64,000 nt of DNA from Acutalibacteraceae bacterium. Its GTDB lineage: Bacteria; Bacillota; Clostridia; Oscillospirales; Acutalibacteraceae. The notes under the pieces were generated by a model. The model was not told the DNA's origin and did no database searches. It saw nothing but the letters and a program-made list of their open reading frames with translations. The stretch spans positions 1,894-65,893 of the forward strand of contig JAZTWN010000055.1 in the NCBI GenBank assembly GCA_045635905.1. Direction: 5' to 3'. The number at the start of each line of letters is the position of its first letter. The stretch's first letter is position 1. The position numbers were made by a program, and so were the translations under genes. Of this stretch, positions 11,407 to 56,612 are shown piece after piece.

Positions 11407-11419
11407 AATATCAATCCTC

Positions 11420-24028: not shown

Positions 24029-24067
24029 AATACACCCCTAAAAAATTTACATTTTGTTAACATTATG

Positions 24068-24096
24068 ATAATATGGCATCAATCACCATTTGTCAA
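24068..24096 (-). promoter_or_regulatory. Near-consensus sigma70 promoter (TTGACA-17-TATTAT) for the epimerase gene
   Basis: On the minus strand, TTGACA (24096-24091), a 17-nt spacer and TATTAT (24073-24068) lie about 40 nt upstream of the ATG at 24028. Confidence 0.6.
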
Positions 24097-24262
24097 TAAT
24101 ATGAATAATTTTATGTAATTCCTGTCTGTCAGAATAGTGATTTTATACATTTTTAAATGTCACTTTTTTGTCATTGAGCAATTATCACAAATCAAGCATC
24201 ACGCAAAATATATTGATACTGCTTTATTTTTTTTAATTACACCAGTATCACATTTTTGTTCT

Positions 24263-24538
24263 TCAGACCAACAGATTCAACTCTTTTAATTGTCCAATAA
24301 AAGCCGTAACGTCCTCACGTGCTTCATTTTCAGAAACAGAAAATTCTGACGTAATTTCGCGGACTATTTCATCAATATTTTTTTCAGTCTGAAGCGACTG
24401 CCATATAGCCGCACTGACAGAATTCAGCACAATAAGCTGAGAAGGATTTTCCGTATTGCTCACGGAAATCGCAAGATACTCCCCTGCGACCTCACGCAGA
24501 ATGAAGCCGCTTCTGACTCTGAATTTTTCATCAGACAT
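24263..24538 (-). CDS. PqqD-family peptide chaperone (RiPP recognition element)
   Basis: MSDEKFRVRSGFILREVAGEYLAISVS...LIVLNSVSAAIWQSLQTEKNIDEIVREITSEFSVSENEAREDVTAFIGQLKELNLLV shows the PqqD pattern (beta-strands, then LNxxxxxIW, then D(V/I)xxFlxxL). I chose the ATG at 24538 (GGGGTGA 5 nt upstream) over the track start. Confidence 0.8.
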   Translation of the reverse strand: MSDEKFRVRSGFILREVAGEYLAISVSNTENPSQLIVLNSVSAAIWQSLQTEKNIDEIVREITSEFSVSENEAREDVTAFIGQLKELNLLV

Positions 24539-24643
24539 AATATCACCCCATAAGAATAATAGCACATTTATTTTTCACATACAACAAAATTTGCAAAAAT
24601 ACAAAAAAAGTCTGAATTTTACAAAATTTTAACAAATGTCGGG

Positions 24644-24672
24644 TTGACATAATATGATAGTAGTATTATAAT
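24644..24672 (+). promoter_or_regulatory. Perfect-consensus sigma70 promoter (TTGACA-17-TATAAT) driving the HprK-like/rSAM/giant/peptide operon
   Basis: TTGACA at 24644-24649, a 17-nt spacer, and TATAAT at 24667-24672, which is 31 nt upstream of the ATG at 24704. Confidence 0.65.
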
Positions 24673-24703
24673 ATCAAATTATAATATATAGGATTGTGGG
24701 TTA

Positions 24704-25516
24704 ATGGACAAATTTTATGATATCTGCAACAGAATAATTAAAATTGACTCTCCGTATTTCCCCGATGCGGCTATAACGCACGATGAATTTCTTGCCAATG
24801 TCGCAACACCCGATATATGTATTACAGTCAGAGCCGATGACTTTTTACCCGAAAAAGCCCGATTCGGTAGCACTGATAATATTTTCCGCTATCATCCGAT
24901 GGGAACAGAGGAAGGCAGCCTCACGGTATATGACAAAAGTAATCACCGTAGTAGTGAAACGTTCGTCGTGAAGAAGAATATGAAGGTTACTCTTGATGAG
25001 CGCTATTTCTGGAGCAGCATTTCATTTGCATCAATAATGCTTCAGGAAAAAATTCTGTTTTTCCACGCATCATTCATTGAGATTAACGGTGAAGGCATTA
25101 TTTTTACTGCTCCGTCAGGGACAGGGAAAAGCACTCAGGCAAGACTGTGGCAGGAGCACAAGGGCGCTAACGTCATAAACGGTGACAAGGCAGGAATTTT
25201 ACTGCAAGACAAAAGGGCGATTGCATGCGGAGTTCCCTTCTGCGGAACAAGCGGAATATGCAAAAACAGAAGTGTTCCGCTGAAAGCAATTGTTCTGCTC
25301 AGTCAAGCAAAACAGAATACCGTGTGCGAAATAAACGGTGCGGCGGCAATAGCACCGCTGATGCAGAACGTTCACCTCGACCTCGCGGCAGCAGATGATC
25401 GGCTTGCTTGCATTGACCTGCTCATTGAGCTTCTCGGAAACACGGCTGTACTGCAGCTCGGATGCACGCCCGACAAATCGGCAGTTGACACACTTGCCGG
25501 ATATCTCGGGATGTAA
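24704..25516 (+). CDS. HPr-kinase-like P-loop protein (HprK C-terminal domain homologue)
   Basis: FHASFIEINGEGIIFTAPSGTGKSTQARLWQEHKGANVINGDKAGI aligns with the HprK/P core pattern H-G-x-x-V...G-x-G-V-L-I-x-G-x-S-G-x-GKS...L-V-x-DD. 270 aa. Confidence 0.7.
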   Translation: MDKFYDICNRIIKIDSPYFPDAAITHDEFLANVATPDICITVRADDFLPEKARFGSTDNIFRYHPMGTEEGSLTVYDKSNHRSSETFVVKKNMKVTLDERYFWSSISFASIMLQEKILFFHASFIEINGEGIIFTAPSGTGKSTQARLWQEHKGANVINGDKAGILLQDKRAIACGVPFCGTSGICKNRSVPLKAIVLLSQAKQNTVCEINGAAAIAPLMQNVHLDLAAADDRLACIDLLIELLGNTAVLQLGCTPDKSAVDTLAGYLGM

Positions 25517-25532
25517 AAAGGAGGGGTGCTTA

Positions 25533-26648
25533 TTGGAAATTAATTACGATTTACTGCTGAGCAGAATGTTTATTAATGCCGAAGCAAACGGAGTGCCTCT
25601 CGGAGCAACCTTTGAGCTGACGGCCGACTGTCCTCTTAACTGTAAGATGTGCTACATTCATCAGAAGAATTGCCGACAGGCGGATAAGCTTCGCGAGAAG
25701 GATACCGATTGGTGGCTCAATCTTATTGATAAGGCAAAGAAAAAAGGAGTTTTTCTTATTCTTCTTACAGGCGGTGAGCCGCTTATGAGGAAGGATTTCA
25801 AGGAAATATACGTTGCCTGTAAGCAAGCAGGCTTTATGGTTTCCGTAAACACAAACGGAGTGCTTATAGACGACGAAATAATTACACTTTTTACAAGCCT
25901 TCCGCCGCAAAGAGTCAACGTCACTCTGTACGGCACGTCGGCTGAAACGTATAAAAGCCTGTGCGGCAGCGCTGAAGCCTACAACAAGGTTATGACCGCA
26001 ATAGCAAGGCTTAAGGAAGCGAAAATTAACGTCAAGCTGAATTATTCGGTAACACCGCATAACAGATGCGATTGCGAATCGGCTCTCAGCTTTGCAAAAA
26101 ACGAGAGCTTGAAAATGCAACCCGTCACCTACATATATCCCCCTGTAAGAAGCACGGGTGAGGCAGTAAGACTCAGCGCGGAGGATGCAGCAATGGAGCA
26201 TTTTCTGTGGCAAAGACGACTGCTTGGTGATGCGGATATGCTGGAATACGCAAAAGCTCAGCTATCTCCCGATAAAACGGAATCCGAGGATCCGGAATGC
26301 GGTGAAAAAATCAATTGCAGAGCGGGACTTTCAACCCTATGGGTGACCTTTGACGGTTATATGCTCCCCTGCGGTATGATGACAACACCAAAAATTGAAA
26401 TTAAGGATTTTGACGAAGCGTGGCAGTATATACGCCGCGAACGTGAAAATATAATTCTTCCGAAGCAGTGTACCACCTGTGGAGACAGAAAAATCTGCGA
26501 TATATGCGCAGCTGTGGCTTACGCTGAAGCAGGAGAATACGGCGGTGTTCCCCGTTACGCCTGTAAAAAGGCAAAGGAATACAAAAAGCTTTGTAAAAAC
26601 TTCATTGAAGAAATGAATTCTATGTTTTCAGGAGGTTCAGAAAAATGA
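25533..26648 (+). CDS. Radical SAM enzyme with C-terminal SPASM domain (peptide/protein-modifying maturase)
   Basis: CX3CX2C cluster (CPLNCKMC), GGEPL SAM-binding motif, and SPASM cysteines (C-x17-C with GYMLPC, then CTTCGDRKICDIC, and a later C). The TTG start at 25533 is preceded by AAAGGAGGGG at 6 nt. The track ORF start at 25395 would overlap the HprK-like gene. Confidence 0.9.
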   Translation: MEINYDLLLSRMFINAEANGVPLGATFELTADCPLNCKMCYIHQKNCRQADKLREKDTDWWLNLIDKAKKKGVFLILLTGGEPLMRKDFKEIYVACKQAGFMVSVNTNGVLIDDEIITLFTSLPPQRVNVTLYGTSAETYKSLCGSAEAYNKVMTAIARLKEAKINVKLNYSVTPHNRCDCESALSFAKNESLKMQPVTYIYPPVRSTGEAVRLSAEDAAMEHFLWQRRLLGDADMLEYAKAQLSPDKTESEDPECGEKINCRAGLSTLWVTFDGYMLPCGMMTTPKIEIKDFDEAWQYIRRERENIILPKQCTTCGDRKICDICAAVAYAEAGEYGGVPRYACKKAKEYKKLCKNFIEEMNSMFSGGSEK

Positions 26649-29600
26649 AAACTACAAAAAAACTTCTGGCATTTATGCTTTCTGCATTGATGATTTTCTC
26701 CGTGGCTATCGTCCCCGGAGCAGACCTTTCAATGTTTGCAGTTGAAGCAGATGCAGCAATTACCCTCGGCGGTATAACACAGCAGAGAGTTGTTTCAAAT
26801 TATGAAAGCATCTACAGATCATACCAGGAAAGATTTTTTATGGGTGCAGAATCAAACGAACCCACAAATTTTGTTATTCCCGGTCTTTCATCAAGTAACG
26901 ACTATACTCCTCAGGGTATGACGTACTGGGAGGAAAAAGAATGGATTCTTATATCTGCATACGATGCAAGCGGAAGCGGTAAGCACTCCGTTATTTATGC
27001 TCTCGACGCAGTTACAACAGATTTCGTTGCTCTTTTCAAGATTCTCAACGCTGACGGCAGTGTAAACACAAGCCACGGCGGCGGTATTGCTGCATCAAAA
27101 TACAATTTCTACTATGCAGATACAGGCTCAAATATAAGTTATATTCCCCTTTCAGAAATGGACGTTGCAAAGGGCACTGTAAAGGAAATTAAACTCCGCG
27201 GCAGCATTAACTGCAGTGGTGAGCTTGGCGGCGCTGCAACATCATACTGTTGCTATGAAGACGGTGTTCTCTGGGCAGGTAACTTCTACTACAACGAAGA
27301 TGACCGTTATGCTACAAGTGCTCATTCTGCAGCAAACAGTATGATTGTGGGGTATGAGCTTCACGGTAATTCCTCTGCAGAAGAGTGGTATTATCTTTCA
27401 ACCAACTATAACGTTATCAATCTTAATATTGACTCATCTACTCAGCAGACATGGACCAACAATAGCGGTGTATCAATGAATTTTACCACAATGAATACAA
27501 ACGGTGCTAACGTTGAAATCAGAGGTACAATCACAAACACCACCGGCAACACATTTGGCGAAGTTACCCAGAATTTCTGTTCCTTCAAGCTTACTGAAGG
27601 TGTAAAATATAAGCTTGAATTCATAACCGATAACTATCAGATGAGCGACCTTTATATGTTTGCTCCAAACGGTACTCACTGTGACGTAAAGCTTGCTCAA
27701 AGCACAACAATTACAGACCTCGGAAACGGTAAATATCACTATCAGATGATTTTTACCGCAGGTCTCAAGCCCAATGGTGCCGACAGCTCATGGCCCACTA
27801 CACAGAGCACAAACGGCAGCTATACCGGTACATATACAATGCGTTTCGACCAGGATAGTGTAGCTGCAGGCGAGCGCAAATTTAATATGACTGACATTTC
27901 AATTTCGAAATTCGCTGAAGCTTCAGGCTTCACTCCTGATTCAAACTACGAAGGTGTAGGTTGCGCTGGTAATCCCACCTATGTTATCTTATTCCCCGGC
28001 ATAGATAAAATTCAGTATGCAATGGTTTTCAAGGGCAAGATCTATATCAGCCGTTCCTGGAAGCGCACATCAGGCACTAACCATACAAGAGAGCTTATGA
28101 TCGGTGATATTGATATATATTCGCCCGGAGCAGAAAGCTATTCAATCAACGGAAGAACACGTCCCTGCACTGTTCTTAACGTCAATAATATGACCCGTTT
28201 CGGCGGCGACAACGGCGCATCAAATCTTAACCAGATGTTCTATATGGGCGAGGCTCTTTGCGTTATAGAAGACTATCTTTACATGTTCGGCGAAGGCGCA
28301 GCATGGGCTTACAACGGCAAGGAAAGTAACAACAAGTGTGATGAGCCCATTGACGTAATCTGGAAAATTGACCAGCATTTTCTTTTGGACGAGAAGCGTC
28401 TTATTGAAGATACAAAAGCCATTTACTATGAAAAGGTTACAGATATATCAGGTATCAATTCAGAAGACGAATATATCATTGTTCATAAATCCCCTGAAAA
28501 GGATCCCATAACACAGAAAAACATTTTGTATGCAATTGATGCATTCGGCGGTTATGGTGGACACAAGCTTCCCAAGCAGGATGCAGGCTCTCAGCCAAAC
28601 ACCGGTGACTCTATGGGTATCGTTGGCTATCCTATAACCAACTACTCTATCGACGAAGAAAATGAAAATATCATTTATCTTTCAGAAGAGGATGCATCAA
28701 AGCTTTCCATACGTTGGGAAATCGAGCCCTCAAATGCAACACACGATAAAGCACAGGTAAAGATCACAAACAAGGACCTTTATTATTCCACCAATGAATA
28801 TCTCTATTTCGGAAGCCGTCTTTTTGCAATGACAACCACAGCAAGAAAAAACCTTGACAGAATATATCTTGAAGAATTTGCAGCAAGTGAAGGTAATTTT
28901 GTTCTTTACTATTTAGGCGGCACAACTGAAGAGGCAAAACCATATTATCTCTGGTGTAATGACGGACGCGATCAGGATTTTATTGCCGCATATACAGAAT
29001 ATTATTCCAATCACGGCAAAACCGGCTATGTGCCTAAATATCACGGTCTTGAAGAGGTTCCCGGCACCTTCCACAGTGACGCATTCCACTATCAGACTGA
29101 CCAAAATACCGGAACATTAATAGGCTCAGTTACTGATGTTGAAATGGGCTCAATAAGTATTTATAAGCGTGTAAATGATGAGTATTCAACAACATCCGGC
29201 AGTCGAGTTTATACTGATATGTTTGCTGAGCTTCAGGCAGACGGAACATACACAATTGACATTGAATCCTATGCAATCAGTAACCTTCAGTACCAGAAGG
29301 TTAACGAAAGACCTACCGACTTTATTTTTGTTCTTGACGCATCAGGCTCTATGACCAACAACACTGATGCACGTGGATACCACACAGAAATAAACAATTG
29401 GTCAGCTCTGAAAATGAAACAAGCAGCTAATAGCAACGATATTTCAGAAAACGGCAACTACAACAGGGAATGGACAAGTAATTTCTATTACAAATTACCC
29501 GATGGTGAATTTGCCCGTATTTCTGTTGCTGTCAATAAAGGTTCAGACGGAACTTACTCAAGAGATATCTGGCTTTGGTGTAAGCATCCCGTAACAGGCA

Positions 29601-32600
29601 GATGCTATAAAATCTCTCAGAATGGATACCTTGTTGTGAACAACTGTACCGGAAATCCTTCAACAGACAGTTCAAGTAGACTTACAGAGGCAATGTATCT
29701 TGCGAACCCATCTGCTTATGGCTATGCAAGTTCATCAGAAATCCTTGCAGAGGCCTCATCTGATAAAAACAGAACGGACTATCATAGTTCAAGAAACTCC
29801 CAAGATAAAAGACGTGACTATGAGGTTTTAAACTACAAGTATACTGATGGCTACGGTTTTACAAGAGCAACATATTACTCTTATGGTGAGTGCTACAGAC
29901 TCTTAGCTATGCAGCAGGCTGTTGAAAAACTTACCTACAAAATTGAAAATGAAGTTAAAAACACCGGTTTGCAACACAGAATAGCTATCGTACAGTTTGG
30001 TTCAGATGGAAATGAAAGCTATAGCAATACCGGCATGTACAAAAACACAAGCACGGCAATGGTTCAGTACAGTAAAGAAAATCCAATTTCCGCGACAAAT
30101 TATCAAAATGCATTCTTTACATCAAGTCAATTTGCAACTGTAAGAAGCATCATCAATAATATTAAGACATGGGACAGAGACCATGACACTTATTCAAACT
30201 TTGGATTTGAAATGGCAAATAATATTGTAAAAAATTCTGATGCTGACTATCTTGCAGACGGCAATAGAAGTGCTTGTATCATTATGATCACAGACGGTGT
30301 TCCTGGTCTTGGCAATAATAACCCAAGCTCAGCAATAAGTACAGCAAATGCAGCAATAGATATGTCCCATCAGTCAAAAGAAAGTGGCGCATACGTTTAT
30401 AGTGTTCTTATGGGTAGTGACTCCTGTTCCGGTTTCAGCATGGATAACTATATGGACTATGTTTCCTCTGAATTCATTGACTCAACAAGCCTTTCTTCTT
30501 CAGGTGACAGAAACGTTGCTGACATCGATTATCGAATTAACGTTCCCACCGGCAGCACCTTCAATATCACAAATCTCGTTAATGATATGTTCAATTCAAT
30601 CACAAAGAACAGCACTAATGCTATGGTAAGGCTTACTGCTGATTCCGTGCTTCGTGAACACGTTACTGATGCCTTTGATATCAGCAATGCAACAATAGAG
30701 GCTTATACAGCAGATTGCGAATATGACGGCATCGGAAGACTCGGATTTGCACAAGAAACCCTTGACTCATCTATAACCGTACTTACAGATGAATTAGACG
30801 TTAATATAGTTAAATCGACCGGATTTGACTATACAGAAAAGTATATCAGCAAAAATCACCCGGGCAAAAAGCTCATCATAAGACTTACCGGTGTTGAAGC
30901 AAATGAAAACGCTGAGCTTCTTAATACATCCATCAACGAGCACGACACAACTGCCATCTATGAAAACATTTCAAATATGACAGCCAACAAACCGTTTAAG
31001 AAGTTCCCGACGGAAAGCTTTACTATTCCCGAGTATACGTACGTGCTCGACTACGGAATTAATATGTATGACTCTGATATCAACGGTACTCTCGTTTCCG
31101 TTGACAGTGAGCCGAGAAAGCAGAATTCTTATTCAACCGTACTTGATACCGACAACATCGGAATTACATTTACAAATGCTCAGCAGGATATGCTTTATTC
31201 ACTCAAGCCTCAATCTGACGGTGCTGAAGAAGATTCAAGAGGCTACTGTCTGATTCAGCGTGATAACGGAACATACGACTGGTTCAGAATCAACATTCTT
31301 CCTGCATCAAACGTTTACTTTGAAGAATTCACCGGAACAAAGCAGACAACAACAGAAAATGCAAATTATGCTAATTGGCACCAGGATGGAACCAAAGAAA
31401 GCTTCACTCAGAATCTTACCAATGAAAATGATGTATACGGCTTTGACAAGGAATATTCAAAAAGCACTTCTGCTTTTTCGTATGGTTCTGCATACAAGGC
31501 TGAGGTAAATTCTGACATTATAAGAAGTGAAACTATTTCCTTCAGCTACACAGGCACAGCAGTAGATATCGTTGCTTCCTGCGGCAGCAAAACCGGTATT
31601 TATATCGTAACAATTAAAAACAGTAATGGTGTTGAAAAAGCATACATTGTTGACACATACTTTACCGACAACGGATATCTCAGCAGCACAAATCAGCTTA
31701 ATCAGGTACCCATTGTTCACCATGAAAATTCAGGCGGCTACGACACATACACTGTTGAGGTCACATCAGTTTACCTTGCATACATTGTAGGTGGAAGAAG
31801 CTCAACATATGCACTGGACCGTTTCGGCAACGAGAATGTTTCTTTCTTCTCAACAGACATTTCCGATGAAGCAAAGGAAGCAGTTCTTTCATTTGCAGAT
31901 ATGGATTACCTTCTTGACGAAAACGTTGAGGTTATCTTCTGCGACGAAAATTCAATCTTCAACGGCGGTACAGGTGCTGAAGGCACAAATGGCGGAATGT
32001 CAACATTTGCACTTGGCTCATCAAGCACAGAAACATCAACAGGTCTTGTAAACTATTTTGACGGTTACAGAATATATAATCCTCTCGGTGATAACGAAGG
32101 CGAATATCCTCAGTCAGAACAGGGGTCTGTGTATTACAACATTATAAATTCGCTCGCAACACCAGATTCAATACTTAACGGAACCAGTGATAAGTTTGTC
32201 GGATACATTGTCGGTTCCGGCAGCACTAACGAAATAAGCTTTTCTGACTACGAAAGCAAGGGTCCTGCTAATGAGGTTTATCTCACAAAAGGCAACGCTA
32301 TTGCTTTCACCGCACCTGAAGGCTATGAAAGAGTTATGGTAAGCCTTCGAGCAGTCAACGGTGCAACAAAAGCAAAAATCGGTAGCAAGGAATTTACAGT
32401 AAGCAGCACAACTGAAATGTATTATGATATTACTCCTTACATTGAGGATAACACCGTAGCAATTCTTAATAGCGGCTCAGGCATACTTGCAGTAAATAAC
32501 ATCAAGCTTGTCAGCGGTCACGTAGTTGAACCTATGGCAGTATTCAACATGTCCAGAATCAGAATGATGATGGCTGCACCTGCAACAGAGGTTGAACCCA

Positions 32601-32815
32601 ATGTTCCCGAGGAAACAACAAACGAAAATATTTCCTGGCCCGAGGTTGATCCCGTTCCCGAAGGCACTGCTCCGGAAGATGACGGTGTTGAAGATAATGT
32701 ATCAGAAGATACAGATTCAACAGATGGCATTATCGATACACTCAAGTCAGTGCTCAATAAGATTATTGCATTCTTTAACAAGGTATTTACCTTGTTAAAA
32801 TCACTTGCTGCGTAA
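26645..32815 (+). CDS. Giant (2,056 aa) secreted protein with a vWA/MIDAS domain and a C-terminal acidic linker plus amphipathic helix
   Basis: Signal peptide MKTTKKLLAFMLSALMIFSVAIVPG...AVEADA. vWA MIDAS DFIFVLDASGSM (from 29318) with RIAIVQFGS and IIMITDGVPG strands. GGAGG RBS 9 nt upstream, and an ATGA overlap with the rSAM stop. The rest of the protein has no motif I recognise. Confidence 0.8.
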   Translation: MKTTKKLLAFMLSALMIFSVAIVPGADLSMFAVEADAAITLGGITQQRVVSNYESIYRSYQERFFMGAESNEPTNFVIPGLSSSNDYTPQGMTYWEEKEWILISAYDASGSGKHSVIYALDAVTTDFVALFKILNADGSVNTSHGGGIAASKYNFYYADTGSNISYIPLSEMDVAKGTVKEIKLRGSINCSGELGGAATSYCCYEDGVLWAGNFYYNEDDRYATSAHSAANSMIVGYELHGNSSAEEWYYLSTNYNVINLNIDSSTQQTWTNNSGVSMNFTTMNTNGANVEIRGTITNTTGNTFGEVTQNFCSFKLTEGVKYKLEFITDNYQMSDLYMFAPNGTHCDVKLAQSTTITDLGNGKYHYQMIFTAGLKPNGADSSWPTTQSTNGSYTGTYTMRFDQDSVAAGERKFNMTDISISKFAEASGFTPDSNYEGVGCAGNPTYVILFPGIDKIQYAMVFKGKIYISRSWKRTSGTNHTRELMIGDIDIYSPGAESYSINGRTRPCTVLNVNNMTRFGGDNGASNLNQMFYMGEALCVIEDYLYMFGEGAAWAYNGKESNNKCDEPIDVIWKIDQHFLLDEKRLIEDTKAIYYEKVTDISGINSEDEYIIVHKSPEKDPITQKNILYAIDAFGGYGGHKLPKQDAGSQPNTGDSMGIVGYPITNYSIDEENENIIYLSEEDASKLSIRWEIEPSNATHDKAQVKITNKDLYYSTNEYLYFGSRLFAMTTTARKNLDRIYLEEFAASEGNFVLYYLGGTTEEAKPYYLWCNDGRDQDFIAAYTEYYSNHGKTGYVPKYHGLEEVPGTFHSDAFHYQTDQNTGTLIGSVTDVEMGSISIYKRVNDEYSTTSGSRVYTDMFAELQADGTYTIDIESYAISNLQYQKVNERPTDFIFVLDASGSMTNNTDARGYHTEINNWSALKMKQAANSNDISENGNYNREWTSNFYYKLPDGEFARISVAVNKGSDGTYSRDIWLWCKHPVTGRCYKISQNGYLVVNNCTGNPSTDSSSRLTEAMYLANPSAYGYASSSEILAEASSDKNRTDYHSSRNSQDKRRDYEVLNYKYTDGYGFTRATYYSYGECYRLLAMQQAVEKLTYKIENEVKNTGLQHRIAIVQFGSDGNESYSNTGMYKNTSTAMVQYSKENPISATNYQNAFFTSSQFATVRSIINNIKTWDRDHDTYSNFGFEMANNIVKNSDADYLADGNRSACIIMITDGVPGLGNNNPSSAISTANAAIDMSHQSKESGAYVYSVLMGSDSCSGFSMDNYMDYVSSEFIDSTSLSSSGDRNVADIDYRINVPTGSTFNITNLVNDMFNSITKNSTNAMVRLTADSVLREHVTDAFDISNATIEAYTADCEYDGIGRLGFAQETLDSSITVLTDELDVNIVKSTGFDYTEKYISKNHPGKKLIIRLTGVEANENAELLNTSINEHDTTAIYENISNMTANKPFKKFPTESFTIPEYTYVLDYGINMYDSDINGTLVSVDSEPRKQNSYSTVLDTDNIGITFTNAQQDMLYSLKPQSDGAEEDSRGYCLIQRDNGTYDWFRINILPASNVYFEEFTGTKQTTTENANYANWHQDGTKESFTQNLTNENDVYGFDKEYSKSTSAFSYGSAYKAEVNSDIIRSETISFSYTGTAVDIVASCGSKTGIYIVTIKNSNGVEKAYIVDTYFTDNGYLSSTNQLNQVPIVHHENSGGYDTYTVEVTSVYLAYIVGGRSSTYALDRFGNENVSFFSTDISDEAKEAVLSFADMDYLLDENVEVIFCDENSIFNGGTGAEGTNGGMSTFALGSSSTETSTGLVNYFDGYRIYNPLGDNEGEYPQSEQGSVYYNIINSLATPDSILNGTSDKFVGYIVGSGSTNEISFSDYESKGPANEVYLTKGNAIAFTAPEGYERVMVSLRAVNGATKAKIGSKEFTVSSTTEMYYDITPYIEDNTVAILNSGSGILAVNNIKLVSGHVVEPMAVFNMSRIRMMMAAPATEVEPNVPEETTNENISWPEVDPVPEGTAPEDDGVEDNVSEDTDSTDGIIDTLKSVLNKIIAFFNKVFTLLKSLAA

Positions 32816-32827
32816 GGAGGTATAAGT

Positions 32828-33061
32828 ATGAAAACATATCAGAAGCCTACAATTATGCTGTCATCAACAGCATCTACAGCAAGTACTTTAGGAAGCTGCA
32901 TGGAAAAGGTTGATGCAGAGCTTATTCAGCAGATTACCGGCCTTCCTATCACTAACGATTCTTTTGGCATGAATGAAGCATGCAAGAAACCTGTACCGAT
33001 TGAGTTTTATTGCAAATTCACATCTGGTGAATTAGGTGCTCTTCAGGCATTCATTTCCTAA
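32828..33061 (+). CDS. 77-aa cytoplasmic Cys-containing small protein, candidate rSAM/PqqD substrate (RiPP-precursor-like)
   Basis: AAGGAGG lies exactly 7 nt before the ATG, and a terminator follows immediately. It has no signal peptide or TM helix. Cys at positions 24, 52 and 62, an S/T-rich stretch at 12-23, and a C-terminal Ser. It is the last gene of the rSAM operon. Confidence 0.6.
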   Translation: MKTYQKPTIMLSSTASTASTLGSCMEKVDAELIQQITGLPITNDSFGMNEACKKPVPIEFYCKFTSGELGALQAFIS

Positions 33062-33078
33062 AAAATCAAACAAAAAAA

Positions 33079-33110
33079 GCAGAGGGGCAAATGCTCCTCT
33101 GTTTTGTTTT
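33079..33110 (+). terminator. Rho-independent terminator of the rSAM/giant/peptide operon
   Basis: GCAGAGGGG-CAAAT-GCTCCTCTG hairpin followed by TTTTGTTTT. Confidence 0.7.
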
Positions 33111-33113
33111 ATG

Positions 33114-33150
33114 CAAAAAAATCGGAGGGGTTTGAGCCCTCCGTTTTTTA
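33114..33150. terminator. Bidirectional rho-independent terminator (ends the TraX operon on the minus strand)
   Basis: AAAAAAAT-CGGAGGG-GTTTGAG-CCCTCCG-TTTTTTA: a 7-bp GC-rich stem flanked by an A-tract and a T-tract. It sits 2 nt from the TraX stop codon. Confidence 0.7.
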
Positions 33151-33151
33151 T

Positions 33152-33835
33152 TCAGAAAAACAGGATTTTTATAAGATAAATCACTGCAAGATGCAAGGGA
33201 TAGAAAACGTAGAAAAGATATTTCAGCTTCAGCCTTCCTCGTTTTCCGTTATACAGAGCAATCGGCACAAGGGAAAGCAGAGAATACCACTGTATGCCGC
33301 CAAGGTCAATGGAAAGAAATACAAGCATAACAAAGGCTGCAACAAGCTTTAACGGCTTTTTCGGTGCAAAATATACTATTACAGGCAACAAAAGGCCCGA
33401 AAAACCGTAATCAATCTGAAAGCCCTTTACAAGCACCGGCATTCCCAGACATAGAAAAATTACCGCTGACGCATCAATTGCCACAAGCAGTGCGGATGAA
33501 AGATTTTTCTTTTTAATGAAATTATCTATTGCAAAAATCGTCAGAATAGAAAGAGAAAAGGTCACAAGCACATTCTGATAATATGATTTTTCCGCAATAA
33601 AATATACGAGCTGACAGCCCACTGCAAGACCTGCAATTTTCAGGAAATATTGCCGTTTTTTACGGGTATAAAAGCAGCCCTCGGCAATCATAAAAGCAAA
33701 TATGGGGAAAGCAAGTCTGCCGAAAATCTGAAGAAATTCAAGCTGCGGAAAAAGCTCCTTGCCAACGTGGTCGGCAAGCATTGAAAGCACCGCAAGAATT
33801 TTAAGCTGATTGTTTGAAAGTCTTAAATATTTCAT
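33152..33835 (-). CDS. TraX-family integral membrane protein (putative acyl/acetyltransferase)
   Basis: MKYLRLSNNQLKILAVLSMLADHVGK... is the typical TraX N-terminus (LKxxAxxxMxxDH). 227 aa with about 7 hydrophobic helices. ATGA overlap with the upstream gene. Confidence 0.75.
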   Translation of the reverse strand: MKYLRLSNNQLKILAVLSMLADHVGKELFPQLEFLQIFGRLAFPIFAFMIAEGCFYTRKKRQYFLKIAGLAVGCQLVYFIAEKSYYQNVLVTFSLSILTIFAIDNFIKKKNLSSALLVAIDASAVIFLCLGMPVLVKGFQIDYGFSGLLLPVIVYFAPKKPLKLVAAFVMLVFLSIDLGGIQWYSLLSLVPIALYNGKRGRLKLKYLFYVFYPLHLAVIYLIKILFF

Positions 33836-35193
33836 AGTGATTTTATGTTATTTTCAAATTCTGCGAAGAACTTTTCAAGAATAGCGCTGTCATTTTCGTT
33901 GCCGCGTACACATATTGACGCTGAAAGTGCGCCGCCGATTGAAAGGGCGGTCATAACTGCACAGGGCTTGTTTTTTGCCGCTCCTGCAGTAAAGGCGTCA
34001 AAGGGACCCGATTGCCCCAGCACAAAGTCTGCAGGCTCAAGTTTTCCAACGTTGCTGACAGACATCTGAGGGTTATTGTAAAAAAGCTTTACAAGGCTCT
34101 CTGCCTGAATATACGTCATCGCTTTGTATGCAAAATTCAGAAGCGGCAGCCCGTGAAGACCTAAAAACTCGTCATTCTTAAGCGCCTTCATTGCATCACG
34201 CACAAGAAGCAGAGTTTCCTTAAGGTCACTCCCCTTCTTATCAAGCACACAATACATAAACGACACGTGATTCGTATAGCCTATGGTTGACAAATCCTTG
34301 ATATGACGTCTGAGGTCAGTAGCACAGGCAACACTTAAACGGTCAGTTGTCCTCACGTCTGCAATTTTACCAAACGCATCAATATAGGAGGCAATCAGCA
34401 GGTCCGTCACCGTTGCACCTACCGATTTTGCATATAAGCAGGCTCGTGAAAAGGAATCCGCATCAACACGGCAGGAGGAAATTACTACCTTTTCCTCACC
34501 GTTTACGGGGGTAAACGGGAATTTTATCTTTGAACGGGGTGAGGCATTGGCTATCTGCATTTTAGCCTTTTTTGCAGTCTTTTTATCAAAGCCCTTATAC
34601 ACCTCGGAATATTTACGGGAGCCGACAGAGAAATTTACGGGAGAAATACCGCAAAGAAGAAAATCCGTGTAATTTTTACAGAAATCACTCCAGAACATTT
34701 TAAATCCGCCACCGTCAAAGCACATATGATTCCATATAAAAAGCACGTAGGTTCTGCCCTCGTAAAAGTAAACACCTATATTCATCTGAACGTTACTTTT
34801 CAAGGGAATTTCACGCGAGAAGAACTCTTCCTTAGCCTTTTTTATATCATCCACCTGACGGATATCGAGAAAATCCGTTATAGCATAATCGGCAACCTTC
34901 CAATAGGGTGCAACAGGGTTATTTATAACCTCAGAGCGCAGAATTGTTACGGTTTCAAGGCAACAAACAGCAACAGTCTTAAAGGCTTCGGTATCAACAA
35001 TAAAATCGTAATCCATTTCAAAGCGCGCAAGACGGTCCATATAATTTCTGCACATAAGGTTTACCTTGTCGTACATTTCAGTGGGAAGCATACGCTTTCC
35101 GGTAACGGGATGTGCATTACGATATGCCTGCAGGTCTGCAATCACCTTTTCGGAGGTTATCCCCTTACTGCGGATATATTCATTATAATCCAT
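33832..35193 (-). CDS. Stand-alone condensation-domain-like acyltransferase (HxxxDG active-site motif)
   Basis: IWNHMCFDGGGFKMFW contains HxxxDG, as in NRPS C-domains / PapA5 / WS-DGAT. The 453-aa size fits a two-lobed CAT-like fold. RBS GGTGA 6 nt upstream. Confidence 0.6.
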   Translation of the reverse strand: MDYNEYIRSKGITSEKVIADLQAYRNAHPVTGKRMLPTEMYDKVNLMCRNYMDRLARFEMDYDFIVDTEAFKTVAVCCLETVTILRSEVINNPVAPYWKVADYAITDFLDIRQVDDIKKAKEEFFSREIPLKSNVQMNIGVYFYEGRTYVLFIWNHMCFDGGGFKMFWSDFCKNYTDFLLCGISPVNFSVGSRKYSEVYKGFDKKTAKKAKMQIANASPRSKIKFPFTPVNGEEKVVISSCRVDADSFSRACLYAKSVGATVTDLLIASYIDAFGKIADVRTTDRLSVACATDLRRHIKDLSTIGYTNHVSFMYCVLDKKGSDLKETLLLVRDAMKALKNDEFLGLHGLPLLNFAYKAMTYIQAESLVKLFYNNPQMSVSNVGKLEPADFVLGQSGPFDAFTAGAAKNKPCAVMTALSIGGALSASICVRGNENDSAILEKFFAEFENNIKSL

Positions 35194-35205
35194 ACAAATT
35201 CACCG

Positions 35206-36894
35206 TTATTCTGCAATATGTGAGAAAAAGAAGTCCCTCTTCTCGTCATTATCGATAACCTTAATGGGCTTTACCTGATTAAGATTTGCACCGCGCTTTC
35301 TGAGAACCTCTCGGTAGTCGTCATAGGTTCCGTGACGCAAAAACTTAACCTCGGGATGTCCCAGCGCACCGCTCTTTATAAGAGGCTCTACGGAAACATT
35401 ACCCTTGCAGAGCATTTCTTCAAACACCTGGGCATACCTTGCTTTTTTGTCTTCGGCTACAGGCTGCGCAGTTTCAAGAAGTAAAACGTAGTGTCCGGGA
35501 GAGGTGGAGCGATCGGGATAAATACTGTATCCGATATACAAATCGTCCATTTCATTGGAAAGATTTTCTACCATTTCATCAAATGCCATCTGACTTATCT
35601 TTTCGCCACTTATATTTGCAATCTGATTAAGGCGGTAACAGAAGGTAATTTTAGGCACCTGATGATAATATCCCGTGCATTTTACAACATCTTCAATTCT
35701 GTAGCGGTAGAAGCCGCTCATATTGGTAAGAATAAGCTCATATTCCTTACCGGGCTCAAGATCCTTGATTGTAAGAAGGTTATCGTAGCCCTCCTGCTCA
35801 ACGGGTCGGAATTCATAGAAGCCGTTCTGAGGAAGCATAACGTATTCAAAGGAGTTAAGCTCCATAGGAACTGCCATAAAAGCCTCGGTTGCGGTATAGC
35901 CAAGATAATGAATGGGCATATCCTCACCTATATATCTGCGAAGCTTTTTTGCATAAAGTGAAAGAGCGCCCGTTCCCATACCGTAAAGCCATTCAACCCT
36001 GGGAAGAATTCTCGGAACGATGGGAGATTCGTCAAAGCCCTTTCTGAACTCATTACGAAGCTCCTCAGCTCTCTTGGGCATAGGCTTTAATTTTCTTTCC
36101 AATTTCTTTCTTATATGCGCGGGAACGTTTACGCTTTCGTTGATAATCCCCTTTTCGATATCATCGCAGAGCATTTCCCAGTTTTCCTCCATATAGAAAA
36201 ACATTGATTCGAGCGTTGTGATGAATATTGTACCGAGATAGCTTGTTTTCGTGTTGATAAGCGCAAATCTCAGTTTAAGATAATGCATATCCATATCAGA
36301 GCCGTCGGGGAAAAGCACCTCCTTCGGGGAGGTAGCAAAAATAGGAACAAGGGGACGGATATTAAGAAGCGGAATTGAAGAAAGACAGCTTATTGTGCCG
36401 CCCTTCATCTTACGCCACGATGTTTCTGCAGTAAGAAGTCCCTTCTGAGGAGGAAGTGGTCTTCCCTTTCTTATAAACCATTTTACGGCGCAGCCTATGG
36501 GTGCGGAAAAGCCAAAGCACTGTGCAACCCACTCTGCCCAGAATGAAAGAGGAACAAGCTTTGATTTACCGGTGCTTCCCGAGCTTTCTGTAAAGCGTCT
36601 GACTGGAAGATTTGTGATAAGCCCTCTTTCCCCCTCTGCCATTCGCCATACATATTCGTCATAGTCGGCATAGGTGGAAAGGGGAACTATTTTCTGATAG
36701 TCCTCTATTGATTTTACCTTGTTGAAATTATGAATCCGTCCGTACTCGGTGGACTTATTCCAGCGCATAAGTCTTTTTACGGTTTTCTCCTGTAATTTAA
36801 GACCTCTGCGAGAATATATATTGAGCTTTATGTGCTCACAGGTACCGACTAAGCCGCCGTATGAGGAAAGTATGTATCCTAATATATTAAGCAT
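35206..36894 (-). CDS. GH3 (auxin-responsive promoter) family adenylate-forming acyl-acid amido synthetase homologue
   Basis: FTESSGSTGKSKLVPL (GH3 P-loop-like SSGT(T/S)xGxxKxxP), GFYRYRIEDVVKCTGYYHQVPKITFCYR (GH3 YRxGDxV...P.. motif), and C-terminal NQVKPIKV (QxKxPR-like). 562 aa. Confidence 0.8.
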   Translation of the reverse strand: MLNILGYILSSYGGLVGTCEHIKLNIYSRRGLKLQEKTVKRLMRWNKSTEYGRIHNFNKVKSIEDYQKIVPLSTYADYDEYVWRMAEGERGLITNLPVRRFTESSGSTGKSKLVPLSFWAEWVAQCFGFSAPIGCAVKWFIRKGRPLPPQKGLLTAETSWRKMKGGTISCLSSIPLLNIRPLVPIFATSPKEVLFPDGSDMDMHYLKLRFALINTKTSYLGTIFITTLESMFFYMEENWEMLCDDIEKGIINESVNVPAHIRKKLERKLKPMPKRAEELRNEFRKGFDESPIVPRILPRVEWLYGMGTGALSLYAKKLRRYIGEDMPIHYLGYTATEAFMAVPMELNSFEYVMLPQNGFYEFRPVEQEGYDNLLTIKDLEPGKEYELILTNMSGFYRYRIEDVVKCTGYYHQVPKITFCYRLNQIANISGEKISQMAFDEMVENLSNEMDDLYIGYSIYPDRSTSPGHYVLLLETAQPVAEDKKARYAQVFEEMLCKGNVSVEPLIKSGALGHPEVKFLRHGTYDDYREVLRKRGANLNQVKPIKVIDNDEKRDFFFSHIAE

Positions 36895-36917
36895 TAATTT
36901 TCACCCTATATTTTTTA

Positions 36918-38072
36918 TCAGAAATTTTCAATAAAGCGTGTGGGACGGTAAGGAAATGCGCGGAAGAAATCCCTGGAACTTTCTTTTATTTCCGCACCGT
37001 ATATGAACGCTGCAGTTTCCATTGTGTGGCCCTCACCTGCAAGCATAAGCCTTGCTGCGGCAGTTTCGGAAAGAGCAAGGTCATATTCACCCTCTGCTCT
37101 TCTCGTAACAGTAGCTCTGCCGTTTTCATATTCAACGTCAAATATACCGCTGTTCTGCGGAAGACGGTCACGACTCATAAGACTGAAGCGGCCGTATTCC
37201 TCAGGGTATTCATTGATTTCAAGAAGCTTCTGCAGATTATATATTCTGCCCGCACAGCCGCTGTTATAATCATAAAAGGTTCCTGGGATTCTGTCTGCAA
37301 GTAAGGAGAACGGTGAGCCCGGATACTGATTGCGGACAACAAGATTTTTTACAATACCGTCGTAATTACGCAAGAAGCCGATCAGCGCATACAATGCTGA
37401 AGGAGTAAGGCAGTAAAGGTCATTTACAAAAAGTGTTTCGGGACGGGTAACGGTAAAACGGACATAACCGTCAGCAACACCGTTTTCATCGCGGTGAAAA
37501 TACGTATAATCGGCATTTTCAAGAGGCTTACCGCAGAAAAACTTCTTATCATTGTGAAGCGTCATAAGATTTTCCTTAAGAGCACACTTGCCGTGAAGCT
37601 CACTTATTTCTTCAAAATACTCATCAGAATAAGGAATAACCTCCGTACATCTGGGAATATGATTCATATTCTCAAATGGCACTCTTATTGCAAAAAGGCG
37701 GTTAAGATTTGCATAGCCGAATTTTTCGTAATATGAAATTGAAAACGGGAAAAGAAGACCTATTGTCCAGTCCTTTTCAAGAGCAAGCTCTTCAATTTTT
37801 TCAAAAATGGCTCTTACGCCGCCAAGACGCCTTGCCTCGGGAAGACTGCAAACACCGCTTGCAACCACTGCGTTGATAAACGTACCGCAATAGTTTGTGC
37901 TGAAGGGTAATACCTCGGAGCCTGCAATCATTCTGTCACCGTCAAAGGCACACATAACAGGCATATCAACGTGGTCATCCACGGCTGCATCAAATTTCCA
38001 TATAAATGAGGCTGATGATATTTTAAGGTAATCAATTTCTTCCTGTTGAGTTGAAACATATCTTACGTCCAT
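36918..38072 (-). CDS. Eis-like GNAT N-acetyltransferase with C-terminal SCP2-type domain
   Basis: GNAT motif A (LPEARRLGGVRAIFEKIEELA), followed by FPFSISYYEKFGYAN (Eis-like). The ~384-aa three-domain length fits. RBS GGAGG 5 nt upstream. Confidence 0.65.
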   Translation of the reverse strand: MDVRYVSTQQEEIDYLKISSASFIWKFDAAVDDHVDMPVMCAFDGDRMIAGSEVLPFSTNYCGTFINAVVASGVCSLPEARRLGGVRAIFEKIEELALEKDWTIGLLFPFSISYYEKFGYANLNRLFAIRVPFENMNHIPRCTEVIPYSDEYFEEISELHGKCALKENLMTLHNDKKFFCGKPLENADYTYFHRDENGVADGYVRFTVTRPETLFVNDLYCLTPSALYALIGFLRNYDGIVKNLVVRNQYPGSPFSLLADRIPGTFYDYNSGCAGRIYNLQKLLEINEYPEEYGRFSLMSRDRLPQNSGIFDVEYENGRATVTRRAEGEYDLALSETAAARLMLAGEGHTMETAAFIYGAEIKESSRDFFRAFPYRPTRFIENF

Positions 38073-41544: not shown

Positions 41545-44500
41545 TTATTTAAGCTTTTCAAGTCCGACAGAGGCACGAAGAATAAGTCTTGCATCAGCTG
41601 CACTTATTGCGCCGTCCTTATCGGCATCAGCAGCCTGCTTCTGAGCATCATTGAGCTTTTCAAGTCCGACAGACGCTCTGAGAGCAAGTCTTGCATCGGA
41701 TGCACTGACAGTGCCGTCATCATCGACGTCACCGACAGTAGCAACAGGCTTGGGAACAGGATTGATTACAAAGGTTAAGGTCTTCTCGCCGGCGTATTTG
41801 CCAATGAAGCTTACCTTAACGTTATACTCCCCTGCTTCAATACACTTACCGCTGTAGGTAAGCTTATAATCGGTACCTTCAACAAGCACCTTTCCCTGTG
41901 AATCCGTCACCTTTACTAAAGGCTGCTGCACACTACCGTTATAAGTAAAGTTATCCTCAGAGAGGGCAATTGTTTTGGGTCTGTAAATTACAGTGGATTC
42001 ACCCTTTGAGCACTCGACACATACGGATGAAACTGAACCGTCTGCAGTAAGCGTTGCGGGCTGAATTACCTCCTTGTACTCGTGAGTATGGTCATAAAGA
42101 CCTATGGTGAACTGACTGAGCACTGAGCCGTAGCAATCCTTTTCTACGGAATAGTAGCGGACTGTAAGAGTTTTGCCGTCATTGGAGAAATAGAACATTG
42201 CAACCATACCTGTTGAACCGATGTTTTTATCAACGTACTGTGCGTCAATAAGCATCTGGGTTACAACGTTTCCGTGTCTGCCCTTGTCCTGACGGTAAAC
42301 AACGTGCTGCCAGGGGTCGTGACCAGATAATACCATAAGAACGTTTTCGTGCTTTGAAATACACTTATCCCACATATCGTTACCGTTCTGAGCATTATCG
42401 TAGCCCTGATAGTATGTGGGAGGATAGCAATCCTCTTCAGAGATTGTTGTTCCGTCACGGTACATATATGCGTGAGTTACAACTATAACCTTATGCTCGG
42501 GATGTGCGGTAATAATCTTGTCTGCCCACTTAAGAGTTTCTTCATTGGGAGCAAAATCAAGTGTAATAATAAGGTAATCAGTACCCTGAACACTGAAGGT
42601 TCTGTATGAGTTTGTAAGGTCGCCCTTTACATCGCCGCCCTCGGGAATATCCTCCTCTCGGGTCATATAGATTATGCTTCCGTCCTCCTGCTCAACAGGA
42701 ATAAGTCCGGGCTGATCGGGGTCAGTAAGTGAAACAGTGCCCTCATTCATCATACCCTCTACGTTTTTTTCATAGAAGCCGTTGTGGAGATTTCTGTTGA
42801 AATCATCCCAGTCATCGTGATTTCCTCGTGCAAGAGAATAAGGAATAATGCCGTTAAGCTTGCTAATGCTGTTTATTGCAGTTACCCATTCACCGTCAGT
42901 ACTGTCGTCGGTTATGTCACCAAGACCGATAACGTATTCTATCTTCTGTGAGGTCTTATTTTCAACAAGCCAGTCATATATTGCCTCCATAGCCTCGGGA
43001 TCTTTTTCACACATGGTCTGTGTATCACCGATAACGGCAAAGGAATAATCGAAGTCACCTACAGGTGCAACATCTTCCTTATCCTGCCATAAAAGAATAT
43101 GCTCAAGGTCATTATTATTAGCGGAAAGGTCTTCTACAAAATGCTCGGGGCATTTTGTAAAGTCGTATGCAGCAAGAAGCTTATCATCCTTCACATCAAT
43201 GCCGTTTTTGTAGTCAGCTGCAATTTCAGCCGCACTACGCATGTCAGACCATACTGCAACAGAATAGATTTCACCTGTGAAATATGTTGCGTTACCGTTT
43301 CTGTGATCACCGCCGATAACTGCATTATGCTTTTCCTCAAAGGTAACGGGTACCTTTACGTTCTTTTTGGTCTGCATAAGCTCACCGTTAACGTAACAAT
43401 GAATTTCCTTCTTATTGAAATCCATTGTAAATGCAAGATGTACCTTTTCACCTGTTGCAACGTTTACGTTTGAGAAGGTATATACGCTTGTTCCCGAATA
43501 TGCCGCAACGTCTCTTATAGCAAGTCGGGGCTGACCGCTTTTATTGAGAGAAAATACTATACAGGGATCATACATACCGTCGCTTCCGAGGATTGTTGTT
43601 GTACCAGTAAGAGTATCTGCGTCAACCGAGAATTCTGCCTCAAAGGTAAGAGGCATTGAGCTGTACTTCTTTGTAAGCACGTACTGCTCATCTGTATTAC
43701 AGGTAAGTGAGCCCTCGTTGTAGCATTCAATACATTCTACAACTGTTACCTTTACGGTATCCTTTGTCTTACCGTCAGAAACGGTAATTGTAGCAGTACC
43801 TGTATTCTTACCTGTAATTTTTCCGTTAACAACACCTGCAACCGAACTGTTGCTTGTGGACCAGGTAAGAGCTGCAGAGCCGTAGTTTGCAGGCTCAACC
43901 TCATAGGTCTGCCCTACCTCAAGGGTAAGAGTCTGGGGATTTACCTCAAAGGACTTTCCGACACCGCCGTAAGAAAATCTGCTTGCAAATATTTCATAGA
44001 AGCCGGGGGTATCCTCGTTATCAATTTCGTTGATAACAAGCATTGAGTTTGTTCTGTACCAGAATGCAGCCATACCGTAGTTACAGGATGTAAGAATAGA
44101 TACATTATGACGAACTCCATTTTCGGAATAGCTCATTATCATATCCTTTGCATGAATACCGCTGTTGGACTTTGTTATGTTTCTGTAGCCTATTTCAGAA
44201 CCAAGCTTCAGCTGCTCAATACCCTCAGTATCAAATGAAGACAGATGTATTGAAAACTTATTGTTTGCATTGGGTCTGTTGCAGAAAACATCGTTAACCT
44301 TTGCCATAAGCGTCTGCTTGATATTACAGTTGCCGGCAGAATATGAATTCCACGTAAATTCAACATAATCGTCAGATGCCTGAAGCTTATCAATATATTT
44401 ACAGGTGGGATTAAAATCGGGCTCCCATACATCAGTTGCACCACCGAAGGGAGTGAAATAAAGCTCAAACACAGGATCTGTTTCCGAGCCGGGATAAATA

Positions 44501-45636: not shown

Positions 45637-45655
45637 TTCTTCCACCTCTTATGCA

Positions 45656-56434: not shown

Positions 56435-56612
56435 ACAGTTATCTCCTTTTTGTAAGTTCTGTATTTTCCCGGACAAGCAAAGAAAAGCTGTTATCAGAAT
56501 TTTTCTCTTACTTTCAAGGGGTAGGATGATATAAAATCACTATTTTATATTAACATATACGCGTAATAAATACAATAACAATTTTTCTCCGGCAAAATAT
56601 ACCTTGTACGGC

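Follow-up and report, generated by a model that had tools for sequence, protein, structure and literature searches.

The gene analysed here lies in a stretch of 64,000 nucleotides (referred to as the window) from an Acutalibacteraceae bacterium (contig JAZTWN010000055.1, positions 1,894 to 65,893 of the forward strand). It encodes a peptide of 77 amino acids (aa) with three cysteines and a terminal serine. On the same strand it is preceded by the genes for a P-loop protein resembling ScmC and HPr kinase, for a radical S-adenosylmethionine (rSAM) enzyme with a SPASM domain and for a secreted protein of 2056 aa, called the giant protein below (Table 1). A match to a sigma-70-type promoter precedes these four plus-strand genes. 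A first-pass annotation of the window had proposed the peptide as a precursor that is modified by both the rSAM enzyme and the kinase-like protein. The open reading frame (ORF) was found to translate as that annotation had given it, with the three cysteines and the serine in place. Its ribosome-binding site (RBS) overlaps the TAA stop codon of the giant gene. The immediate terminator that had been reported was also recovered, as a hairpin with a T-run that probably marks the end of the operon, and a second, bidirectional terminator-like hairpin follows at 33123-33143. To call the RBS the best in the window was an overstatement, as AAGGAGG occurs 10 times in the window against 5.4 times expected by chance, and one of these copies stands before the start of the rSAM gene. 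A scan of positions 24000-34000 with Rfam revealed no RNA family. A chance ORF is excluded by the existence of a conserved family of such peptides. The 77-aa ORF is thus a real gene with good translation, and it closes the operon.

Table 1. Features of the peptide locus in the window and, in the last line, of the homologous locus L013.
Feature	Position	Strand	Description
ATP-binding cassette (ABC) exporter	16489-18204	-	ABC_membrane and ABC_tran domains, no peptidase domain
Stand-alone PqqD-family protein (RiPP recognition element)	24263-24538	-	91 aa from ATG; PF05402, E=1.1e-15
Sigma-70-type promoter	24644-24672	+	perfect TTGACA-17-TATAAT; upstream of the ScmC-like gene
ScmC-like / HPr-kinase-like P-loop protein	24704-25516	+	270 aa; weak NCBIfam and PDB matches
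Radical SAM/SPASM enzyme	25533-26648	+	TTG start after AAGGAGG at 25518; CX3CX2C and SPASM Cys motifs
Giant secreted protein	26645-32815	+	2056 aa; Sec-type signal peptide, weak VWA match
Ribosome-binding site AAGGAGG	32814-32820	+	7 nt before the peptide ATG
Gene of the precursor-like small protein	32828-33061, stop codon included	+	77 aa, from ORF translation
Landmarks of the peptide			recognition motif, residues 1-12; Cys24, Cys52, Cys62; YCKFTS; terminal Ser77
Intrinsic-terminator-like hairpin	33076-33105	+	13-bp stem, 6 GC pairs, T-run
Homogenised tract of the two pairs in L013	9728-10077 versus reverse complement of 10661-11010, approximate		350 nt, 95% identical

Used as a single sequence or as a profile, the peptide found no match in Pfam, NCBIfam, PHROGs or the PDB sequences. 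A word-indexed homologue search yielded 5 clusters, in which C24, C52, C62 and S77 were all invariant. A profile search with a hidden Markov model of 1.84 billion representative proteins (50% clustering) gave 66 full-length matches of 47-94 aa, nearly all of them 65-94 aa long, and the same type of search of a set of 5.8 billion proteins returned 163 clusters (90% identity). The members are unnamed and carry no Pfam domains, and where the source organism was named it was a metagenome-assembled genome of Acutalibacteraceae or other Clostridia. One match in the genome collection, to a Nitrospirales sequence (L009), was spurious, since it covered 23 residues within an unrelated ORF. In an alignment of 67 sequences C62 was invariant and C24, C52 and S77 were each at least 90% conserved, whereas a conserved Trp was not found. 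The peptide ends in Ser in 166 of 170 members; three of the four others have a penultimate Ser and the last one is apparently truncated. Conservation of the cysteines and of the terminal serine, which the first-pass annotation had relied on, was thereby borne out. Exactly three Cys are present in 152 of the 170 members, and the motifs Y-x-K-P near the N-terminus and [YF]CK[FYL] each occur in 163. The leader follows the nearly invariant consensus M-K-x-Y-I/V-K-P-T-F/I-x-L-A. The spacing is also well kept: the first Cys lies at residues 22-25 across the family and the second 28-32 residues further, the distance between the second and third is 10 in 110 of 164 members, and 15 residues follow the third in 108 of 164.

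A few short segments hold most of the conservation. The mean pairwise identity is 0.65 for residues 1-12, 0.44 for residues 46-52 around C52, 0.84 for YCKFTS (residues 61-66, which include Cys62) and 1.0 for Ser77. It amounts to 0.27 in the linker 13-23, 0.29 in residues 24-45, 0.23 in residues 53-60 and 0.25 in residues 67-76. Acidic residues (Asp or Glu) are enriched two residues before the second Cys (94%), three residues before the third (71%) and six residues after the third (66%). In the peptide of the window E50 stands two residues before Cys52, E59 seven residues after Cys52 and three before Cys62, and E68 six residues after Cys62. The core of this peptide is long, with 54 residues beyond Cys24. 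An AlphaFold model based on the 67-sequence alignment had a mean predicted local distance difference test (pLDDT) score of 57.7 and showed a single short helix and no autonomous fold. The absence of a stable fold fits a peptide substrate.

The segment between the leader motif and the first Cys, residues 12-23, had been described as a tract of Ser and Thr. This is not a feature of the family, as the segment is variable: it is polar in the subgroup of the window's peptide and hydrophobic in many other members. The hydrophobic variants raise the question of a Sec or lipoprotein signal formed by the N-terminal ~22 residues, in which case a mature part of ~54 aa, starting near Cys24, would bind the giant protein outside the cell. 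A 10-residue Kyte-Doolittle window of at least 1.6 was indeed found in the first 26 residues of 86 of 157 members, and many of these segments end in small residues of the A-x-A kind right before the first Cys. However, a strict lipobox, [LVI][ASTVI][GAS]C, is present in only 7 of 160 members and a charged residue lies inside the segment in 70 of 160. In the window's own subgroup the segment is polar (TIMLSSTASTASTLGS in the 77-aa peptide, with a hydropathy maximum of 1.0 over 10 residues). Moreover, the invariant Y-x-K-P-T is foreign to the n-regions of signal peptides, and a signal peptide would leave the conserved cytoplasmic enzyme set unexplained. The signal reading was rejected on the lipobox and charge counts and is considered very improbable.

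The 6.2-kb giant gene sits between the rSAM gene and the peptide gene. Its product has a conserved C-terminal domain of ~500 aa, which an acidic linker connects to an amphipathic helix at the very end. Directly 5' of every peptide copy with readable upstream DNA a gene for a protein of ~1,870-2,750 aa was found, the last ~500 aa of which are homologous to the window's giant protein. The N-terminal parts of these giants vary and carry VWA, Flg_new, Big_3 or SHIRT domains. In nearly all of the 15 junctions read the RBS of the peptide gene overlaps the stop codon or the last codons of the giant gene (one locus, L010, has only GGAGG). In the copies with readable upstream DNA the peptide gene is always translationally coupled to the giant gene, which is its obligate gene partner. 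At five of them, in L001, L002, L003, L006 and L008 (near position 10001; 8640 in L003), the last residues of the giant protein, K-E-V-F/Y, are conserved. The codons of these residues form, in the other frame, the RBS of the peptide gene, AAA GGA GGT ATT TTG ATG, so the conservation of the K-E-V-F/Y end may be imposed at the nucleotide level.

Two loci, L013 and L014, contain two convergent pairs of giant and peptide genes each, but the DNA read there encodes only a single rSAM enzyme and a single ScmC-like protein. The two paralogous peptides of L013 have an identical leader of 24 aa and diverged cores. The homogenised tract of this locus (Table 1) spans the tail of the giant gene, the RBS junction and the leader of the peptide; elsewhere the two pairs are 66-84% identical or cannot be aligned. 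This indicates gene conversion, or a joint constraint on giant tail and leader. As pairing with the giant gene is 1:1 and the enzymes are common to two pairs, the peptide seems to be stoichiometrically tied to the giant protein. The first-pass annotation had treated the peptide as a stand-alone precursor of the sactipeptide or ranthipeptide kind. Its link with an rSAM gene stood, but the 1:1 coupling to the giant gene had been missed, and this coupling changes the likely biological role of the peptide.

The pairing also bears on two other explanations. The peptide could be an ordinary secreted ribosomally synthesised and post-translationally modified peptide (RiPP), a bacteriocin or signal of the sactipeptide or ranthipeptide kind, for which the place after the giant gene would be an accident of the operon. 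The standard parts of such a system (an rSAM/SPASM enzyme, a PqqD protein, a kinase-like protein for tailoring and an ABC exporter close by) are present, and the leader is conserved and the core variable. However, a gene with the giant's C-terminal domain precedes the peptide in every readable locus, even though the members are ~30% identical and the gene order changes. Duplications copy giant and peptide together and not the peptide alone, the core of 54 residues past Cys24 is long and has fixed spacing, and neither a peptidase nor an immunity gene was seen. An ordinary RiPP is therefore considered decidedly unlikely. A toxin and immunity pair, with a giant toxin and a small immunity protein, was rejected as well: the C-terminal domain of the giant is its conserved and not its variable part, and the small protein is unfolded, has a linear N-terminal motif and keeps its last residue invariant.

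The enzymes encoded upstream of the giant gene were compared with named families. The rSAM enzyme matches PF04055 (E=4e-24), and its closest solved relatives are the RiPP maturases SkfB, PqqE and SuiB. ScmE is its best full-length match. It has no fused N-terminal RiPP recognition element (RRE) and scores below every equivalog cutoff of NCBIfam. The P-loop protein is nearest to ScmC (TIGR04249, E=2.5e-8, 33.6 bits against a cutoff of 125), followed by HprK_rel_B (3.9e-4), HprK_rel_A (1.1e-3) and HprK (7.5e-3), every score being below its cutoff. Its sole match in the PDB is HprK/P, with E=0.011 for the single sequence and E=0.23 with a profile. This alignment spans the His, the P-loop GTGKST and the Asp of the protein. 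The motif FH-S...GTGKSTQA...INGDK, including the His and Asp that align with HprK, is invariant in 7 ScmC-like orthologues, and PF27840 (ScmC) is recorded on orthologues. The similarity to TIGR04249 and HprK behind the kinase assignment of the first-pass annotation is weak.

The stand-alone PqqD gene points away from the operon, on the minus strand, and into a capsule locus. In relatives (e.g. L008:957-1235, +) PqqD is co-directional with the ScmC-like gene and upstream of it, and the capsule locus comes after the peptide gene. The window shows the opposite orientation for the block that begins with the ScmC-like gene and ends with the peptide gene: with respect to PqqD and the capsule locus it is inverted, and as a result PqqD reads into the epimerase and CpsB genes. 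The ABC exporter gene lies inside this capsule locus. It is 53-56% identical to ABC genes that abut the ScmC-like gene in L013, L022 and L023, and may be a component of the peptide system instead of serving capsule export. The cassette was found to contain no further small ORF that is conserved. The ORFs of 50-58 aa at 23954-24632 lie antisense to PqqD or in AT-rich intergenic DNA, and the gap between the epimerase-like gene and PqqD measures just 15 nt in L008.

Among ~12 independent loci with enough upstream DNA all have the rSAM/SPASM enzyme or the ScmC/HprK-like protein, and usually both; the rSAM orthologues were recovered by phmmer with E-values from 1e-114 to 1e-133. The proposal that homologues of the peptide neighbour rSAM genes was in this way confirmed. 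A very divergent member of 88 aa is found in the order giant-like gene, peptide, ScmC-like gene. A capsule locus lies 3' of the peptide gene in many loci. The one in the window comprises CpsB, an Ig-like protein, two Wzz/CpsD-like proteins, the ABC exporter, Polysacc_synt_2, DegT and a sugar transferase.

Taken with the conserved Cys, Ser, leader and synteny, these data suggest by analogy with known systems that the peptide is a RiPP-like precursor, which would be bound by PqqD, crosslinked by the rSAM enzyme at its cysteines, phosphorylated on its terminal serine and paired 1:1 with the giant protein. We rate this as moderately probable. The stand-alone PqqD protein would bind the N-terminal motif and present the peptide to the rSAM/SPASM enzyme that lacks an RRE. 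Residues 1-12 are highly conserved and are identical in paralogues that have one visible enzyme set, which fits recognition by PqqD. The motif is presumed to resemble the K-P-x-F segment of PqqA. The three fixed cysteines (~24, ~52 and 62) would be the crosslinking sites, and the likeliest products would be intramolecular thioethers of the sactipeptide or ranthipeptide kind, with nearby residues, possibly the conserved Asp or Glu, as acceptors. The HprK/ScmC-like P-loop protein would phosphorylate the C-terminal serine, in analogy to the kinases of lasso peptides. Because the peptide is coupled 1:1 to the giant gene and the enzymes are common to two pairs, the modified peptide would most likely serve the giant's conserved C-terminal domain as a dedicated partner, be it a small subunit, a ligand or an anchor, and it may leave the cell via the co-conserved ABC exporter. 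The peptide looks like an enzyme-modified partner of a giant surface protein and not like a free antibiotic.

The same coupling could be explained if the small protein stayed unmodified and assisted the giant protein as an accessory partner, for example as a chaperone, a secretion adaptor, an anchor or an inhibitor. The rSAM, PqqD and ScmC-like proteins would then have another target, for instance the giant or a capsule-related substrate, and the cysteines and the serine would serve binding or metal ligation. This would agree with the strict 1:1 coupling to the giant even where the enzymes are not duplicated, with the homogenised tract, which runs from the giant tail into the beginning of the peptide gene, and with the cassette often abutting a capsule locus. 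On the other hand, the substrates of PqqD-type RREs and of SPASM enzymes without an RRE are short peptides, and no conserved ORF of peptide size other than that of the small protein is present in the cassette. Its conservation peaks at a linear N-terminal motif, three cysteines and the last residue, and not in a folded core. The giant is exported by means of its Sec signal, whereas rSAM enzymes and kinases act in the cytoplasm, and three cysteines with neither a His nor a fourth ligand make a poor metal site. An unmodified partner is thus regarded as unlikely.

A number of points weigh against a modified precursor that is paired with the giant protein. The crosslinks, their thioether type and the phosphorylation of Ser77, which the first-pass annotation had already put forward, as well as the interaction of the peptide with the giant protein, are what we infer from sequence. 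The similarity of the ScmC-like protein to HprK is weak. PqqD was seen in four loci only (the window, L001, L008 and L010), although elsewhere it possibly lies outside the flanks. The link with the ABC exporter comes from synteny in three other loci only, the window's subgroup of the peptide has no export signal, and a leader peptidase was not found in the operon or cassette. Roughly half of the members are hydrophobic between the motif and the first Cys, with small residues at the end of this stretch, and resemble a Sec signal there. Finally, AlphaFold modelled the C-terminal domain of the giant poorly (pLDDT 47.6), the model having been built on the 6 matches from a homologue search that was swamped by low-complexity candidates; the terminal amphipathic helix was its best-predicted part (pLDDT ~75-83).

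The arrangement was compared with known peptide systems. In lasso peptide biosynthesis, homologues of HPr kinase phosphorylate the C-terminal Ser side chain of linear precursors, and this Ser is the only feature that the cores share (PMC8498205); the precedent cited by the first-pass annotation therefore holds. As with PadeK of the paeninodin cluster, a P-loop protein of the HPr-kinase superfamily stands beside a ribosomal precursor ending in Ser, and a stand-alone PqqD-like RRE is present. In contrast to the lasso systems, the core enzyme in the window is an rSAM/SPASM protein, the kinase-like protein scores nearer to ScmC than to the lasso-associated HprK-related A and B families (below all cutoffs), and the peptide is 77 aa long, has three conserved cysteines and is obligately coupled to a giant gene. 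Neither a lasso cyclase (like Asn synthetase) nor a leader protease (like transglutaminase) was detected in the operon or in the homologous loci. This implies that the cassette of the window is not a lasso system.

A second comparison concerns QhpC, the gamma subunit of quinohemoprotein amine dehydrogenase, a protein of ~9 kDa with an N-terminal leader, three cysteines of which are crosslinked to Asp or Glu by the rSAM/SPASM enzyme QhpD in the cytoplasm (PMC7876137). QhpC is exported by an ABC transporter and joins, as a stoichiometric subunit, much larger secreted proteins whose genes lie in its operon (PMC7876137). The peptide of the window likewise has three fixed cysteines with conserved Asp or Glu nearby, an ABC exporter in the neighbourhood and a 1:1 coupling to a large secreted protein. 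It differs from QhpC in having no sequence similarity to it and no Trp or cysteine tryptophylquinone (CTQ) chemistry, and its system lacks a QhpE-like protease and QhpG. Furthermore, the system of the window is Gram-positive, the partner is a surface-type protein of 2,000 aa instead of a dehydrogenase, and a kinase-like protein and the terminal serine come in addition. Judged on sequence, the peptide resembles QhpC in logic only and is not a relative.

In the sactipeptide and ranthipeptide systems SkfA/SkfB, PapA/PapB and SCIFF, too, the precursor contains Cys and has a conserved leader, its maturase is an rSAM/SPASM enzyme and recognition depends on an RRE. However, the rSAM enzyme of the window scores far below every NCBIfam cutoff for sactipeptide and ranthipeptide enzymes (e.g. 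PapB 52 bits against 340, SkfB 75 against 300). The precursor is long, its cysteines are widely spaced and a 6-kb gene lies between precursor and maturase. Precursors of the window's type do not occur in tandem arrays, but are duplicated together with the giant gene. By these comparisons the peptide belongs to no named sactipeptide or ranthipeptide family. The combination of a ScmC-type HprK-like protein (ScmC being the best-named match of the kinase-like protein) with PqqD and rSAM/SPASM proteins is shared with the SynChlorMet cassettes. Differences are that the window has one rSAM enzyme and that the lineage is that of Clostridia gut bacteria. The SynChlorMet equivalogs score 33.6 against 125 (ScmC), 88 against 400 (ScmE) and 81 against 400 (ScmF) in the window. 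As these scores are far under the cutoffs and there is a single rSAM enzyme, the cassette is not a SynChlorMet cassette. To our knowledge, on the basis of the TIGRFAMs descriptions, no precursor is known for SynChlorMet. Text searches of the literature with the motifs of the peptide, with SynChlorMet, with ScmC and with HPr kinase in combination with radical SAM, SPASM, PqqD or RiPP returned nothing relevant.

The peptides described here form an unannotated family of ~170 sequence clusters from gut and rumen Clostridia, with the leader motif, the three fixed cysteines and the C-terminal serine as hallmarks. The pairing of an HPr-kinase-type protein with a C-terminal Ser would be extended by them from lasso peptides to an rSAM/SPASM cassette, and they offer a concrete candidate substrate for the otherwise orphan ScmC-like proteins. 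They also suggest a role for RiPP machinery in assembling giant cell-surface proteins near capsule loci, beyond the production of antibiotics or signals. A further-reaching idea, which is put forward tentatively and seems possible though rather doubtful, is that the RiPP-type set of PqqD, rSAM/SPASM enzyme, HprK-like kinase and ABC exporter yields no diffusible natural product but a mini-protein with crosslinks and a phosphorylated C-terminus, on which the giant surface proteins of gut Clostridia would depend as their obligate 1:1 partner. Such a mini-protein could lock onto or anchor the C-terminal domain or tail of the giant, with the phosphoserine possibly attaching to polymers of the envelope or capsule. 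If true, the QhpC principle would have a Gram-positive counterpart that is non-enzymatic, and cassettes of the ScmC type would have their first candidate substrate family.

Downstream of the peptide gene, the window contains genes that seem unrelated to it (TraX, a gene of no assigned function, GH3, GNAT, glycosidases and dockerin proteins). Convergent with the peptide gene lies a gene for a membrane protein of the TraX family (pilin acetylase-like; 33152-33835, -). L020 also encodes a TraX-family protein (10888-11667), at a distance of 6 kb downstream of its peptide gene, which is maybe a coincidence. The run that follows at 33832-38072 (-) encodes a 453-aa protein of unknown function with a faint match to a condensation domain, a GH3-family acyl-adenylate/amido synthetase (562 aa) and an acetyltransferase with GNAT and SCP2 domains (384 aa). 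These genes may form a module for the conjugation of small molecules, and the run is not conserved beside the cassette in other loci. Further on, at 41545-56476 (-), two very large dockerin-bearing proteins are encoded. The first (1366 aa) has Laminin_G_3, metallophosphoesterase and dockerin domains, and the second (3606 aa) has beta-helix/PMP repeats and an N-terminal dockerin. The presence of these two proteins points to a host of the cellulosome type (Ruminococcus-like) within the Oscillospirales.

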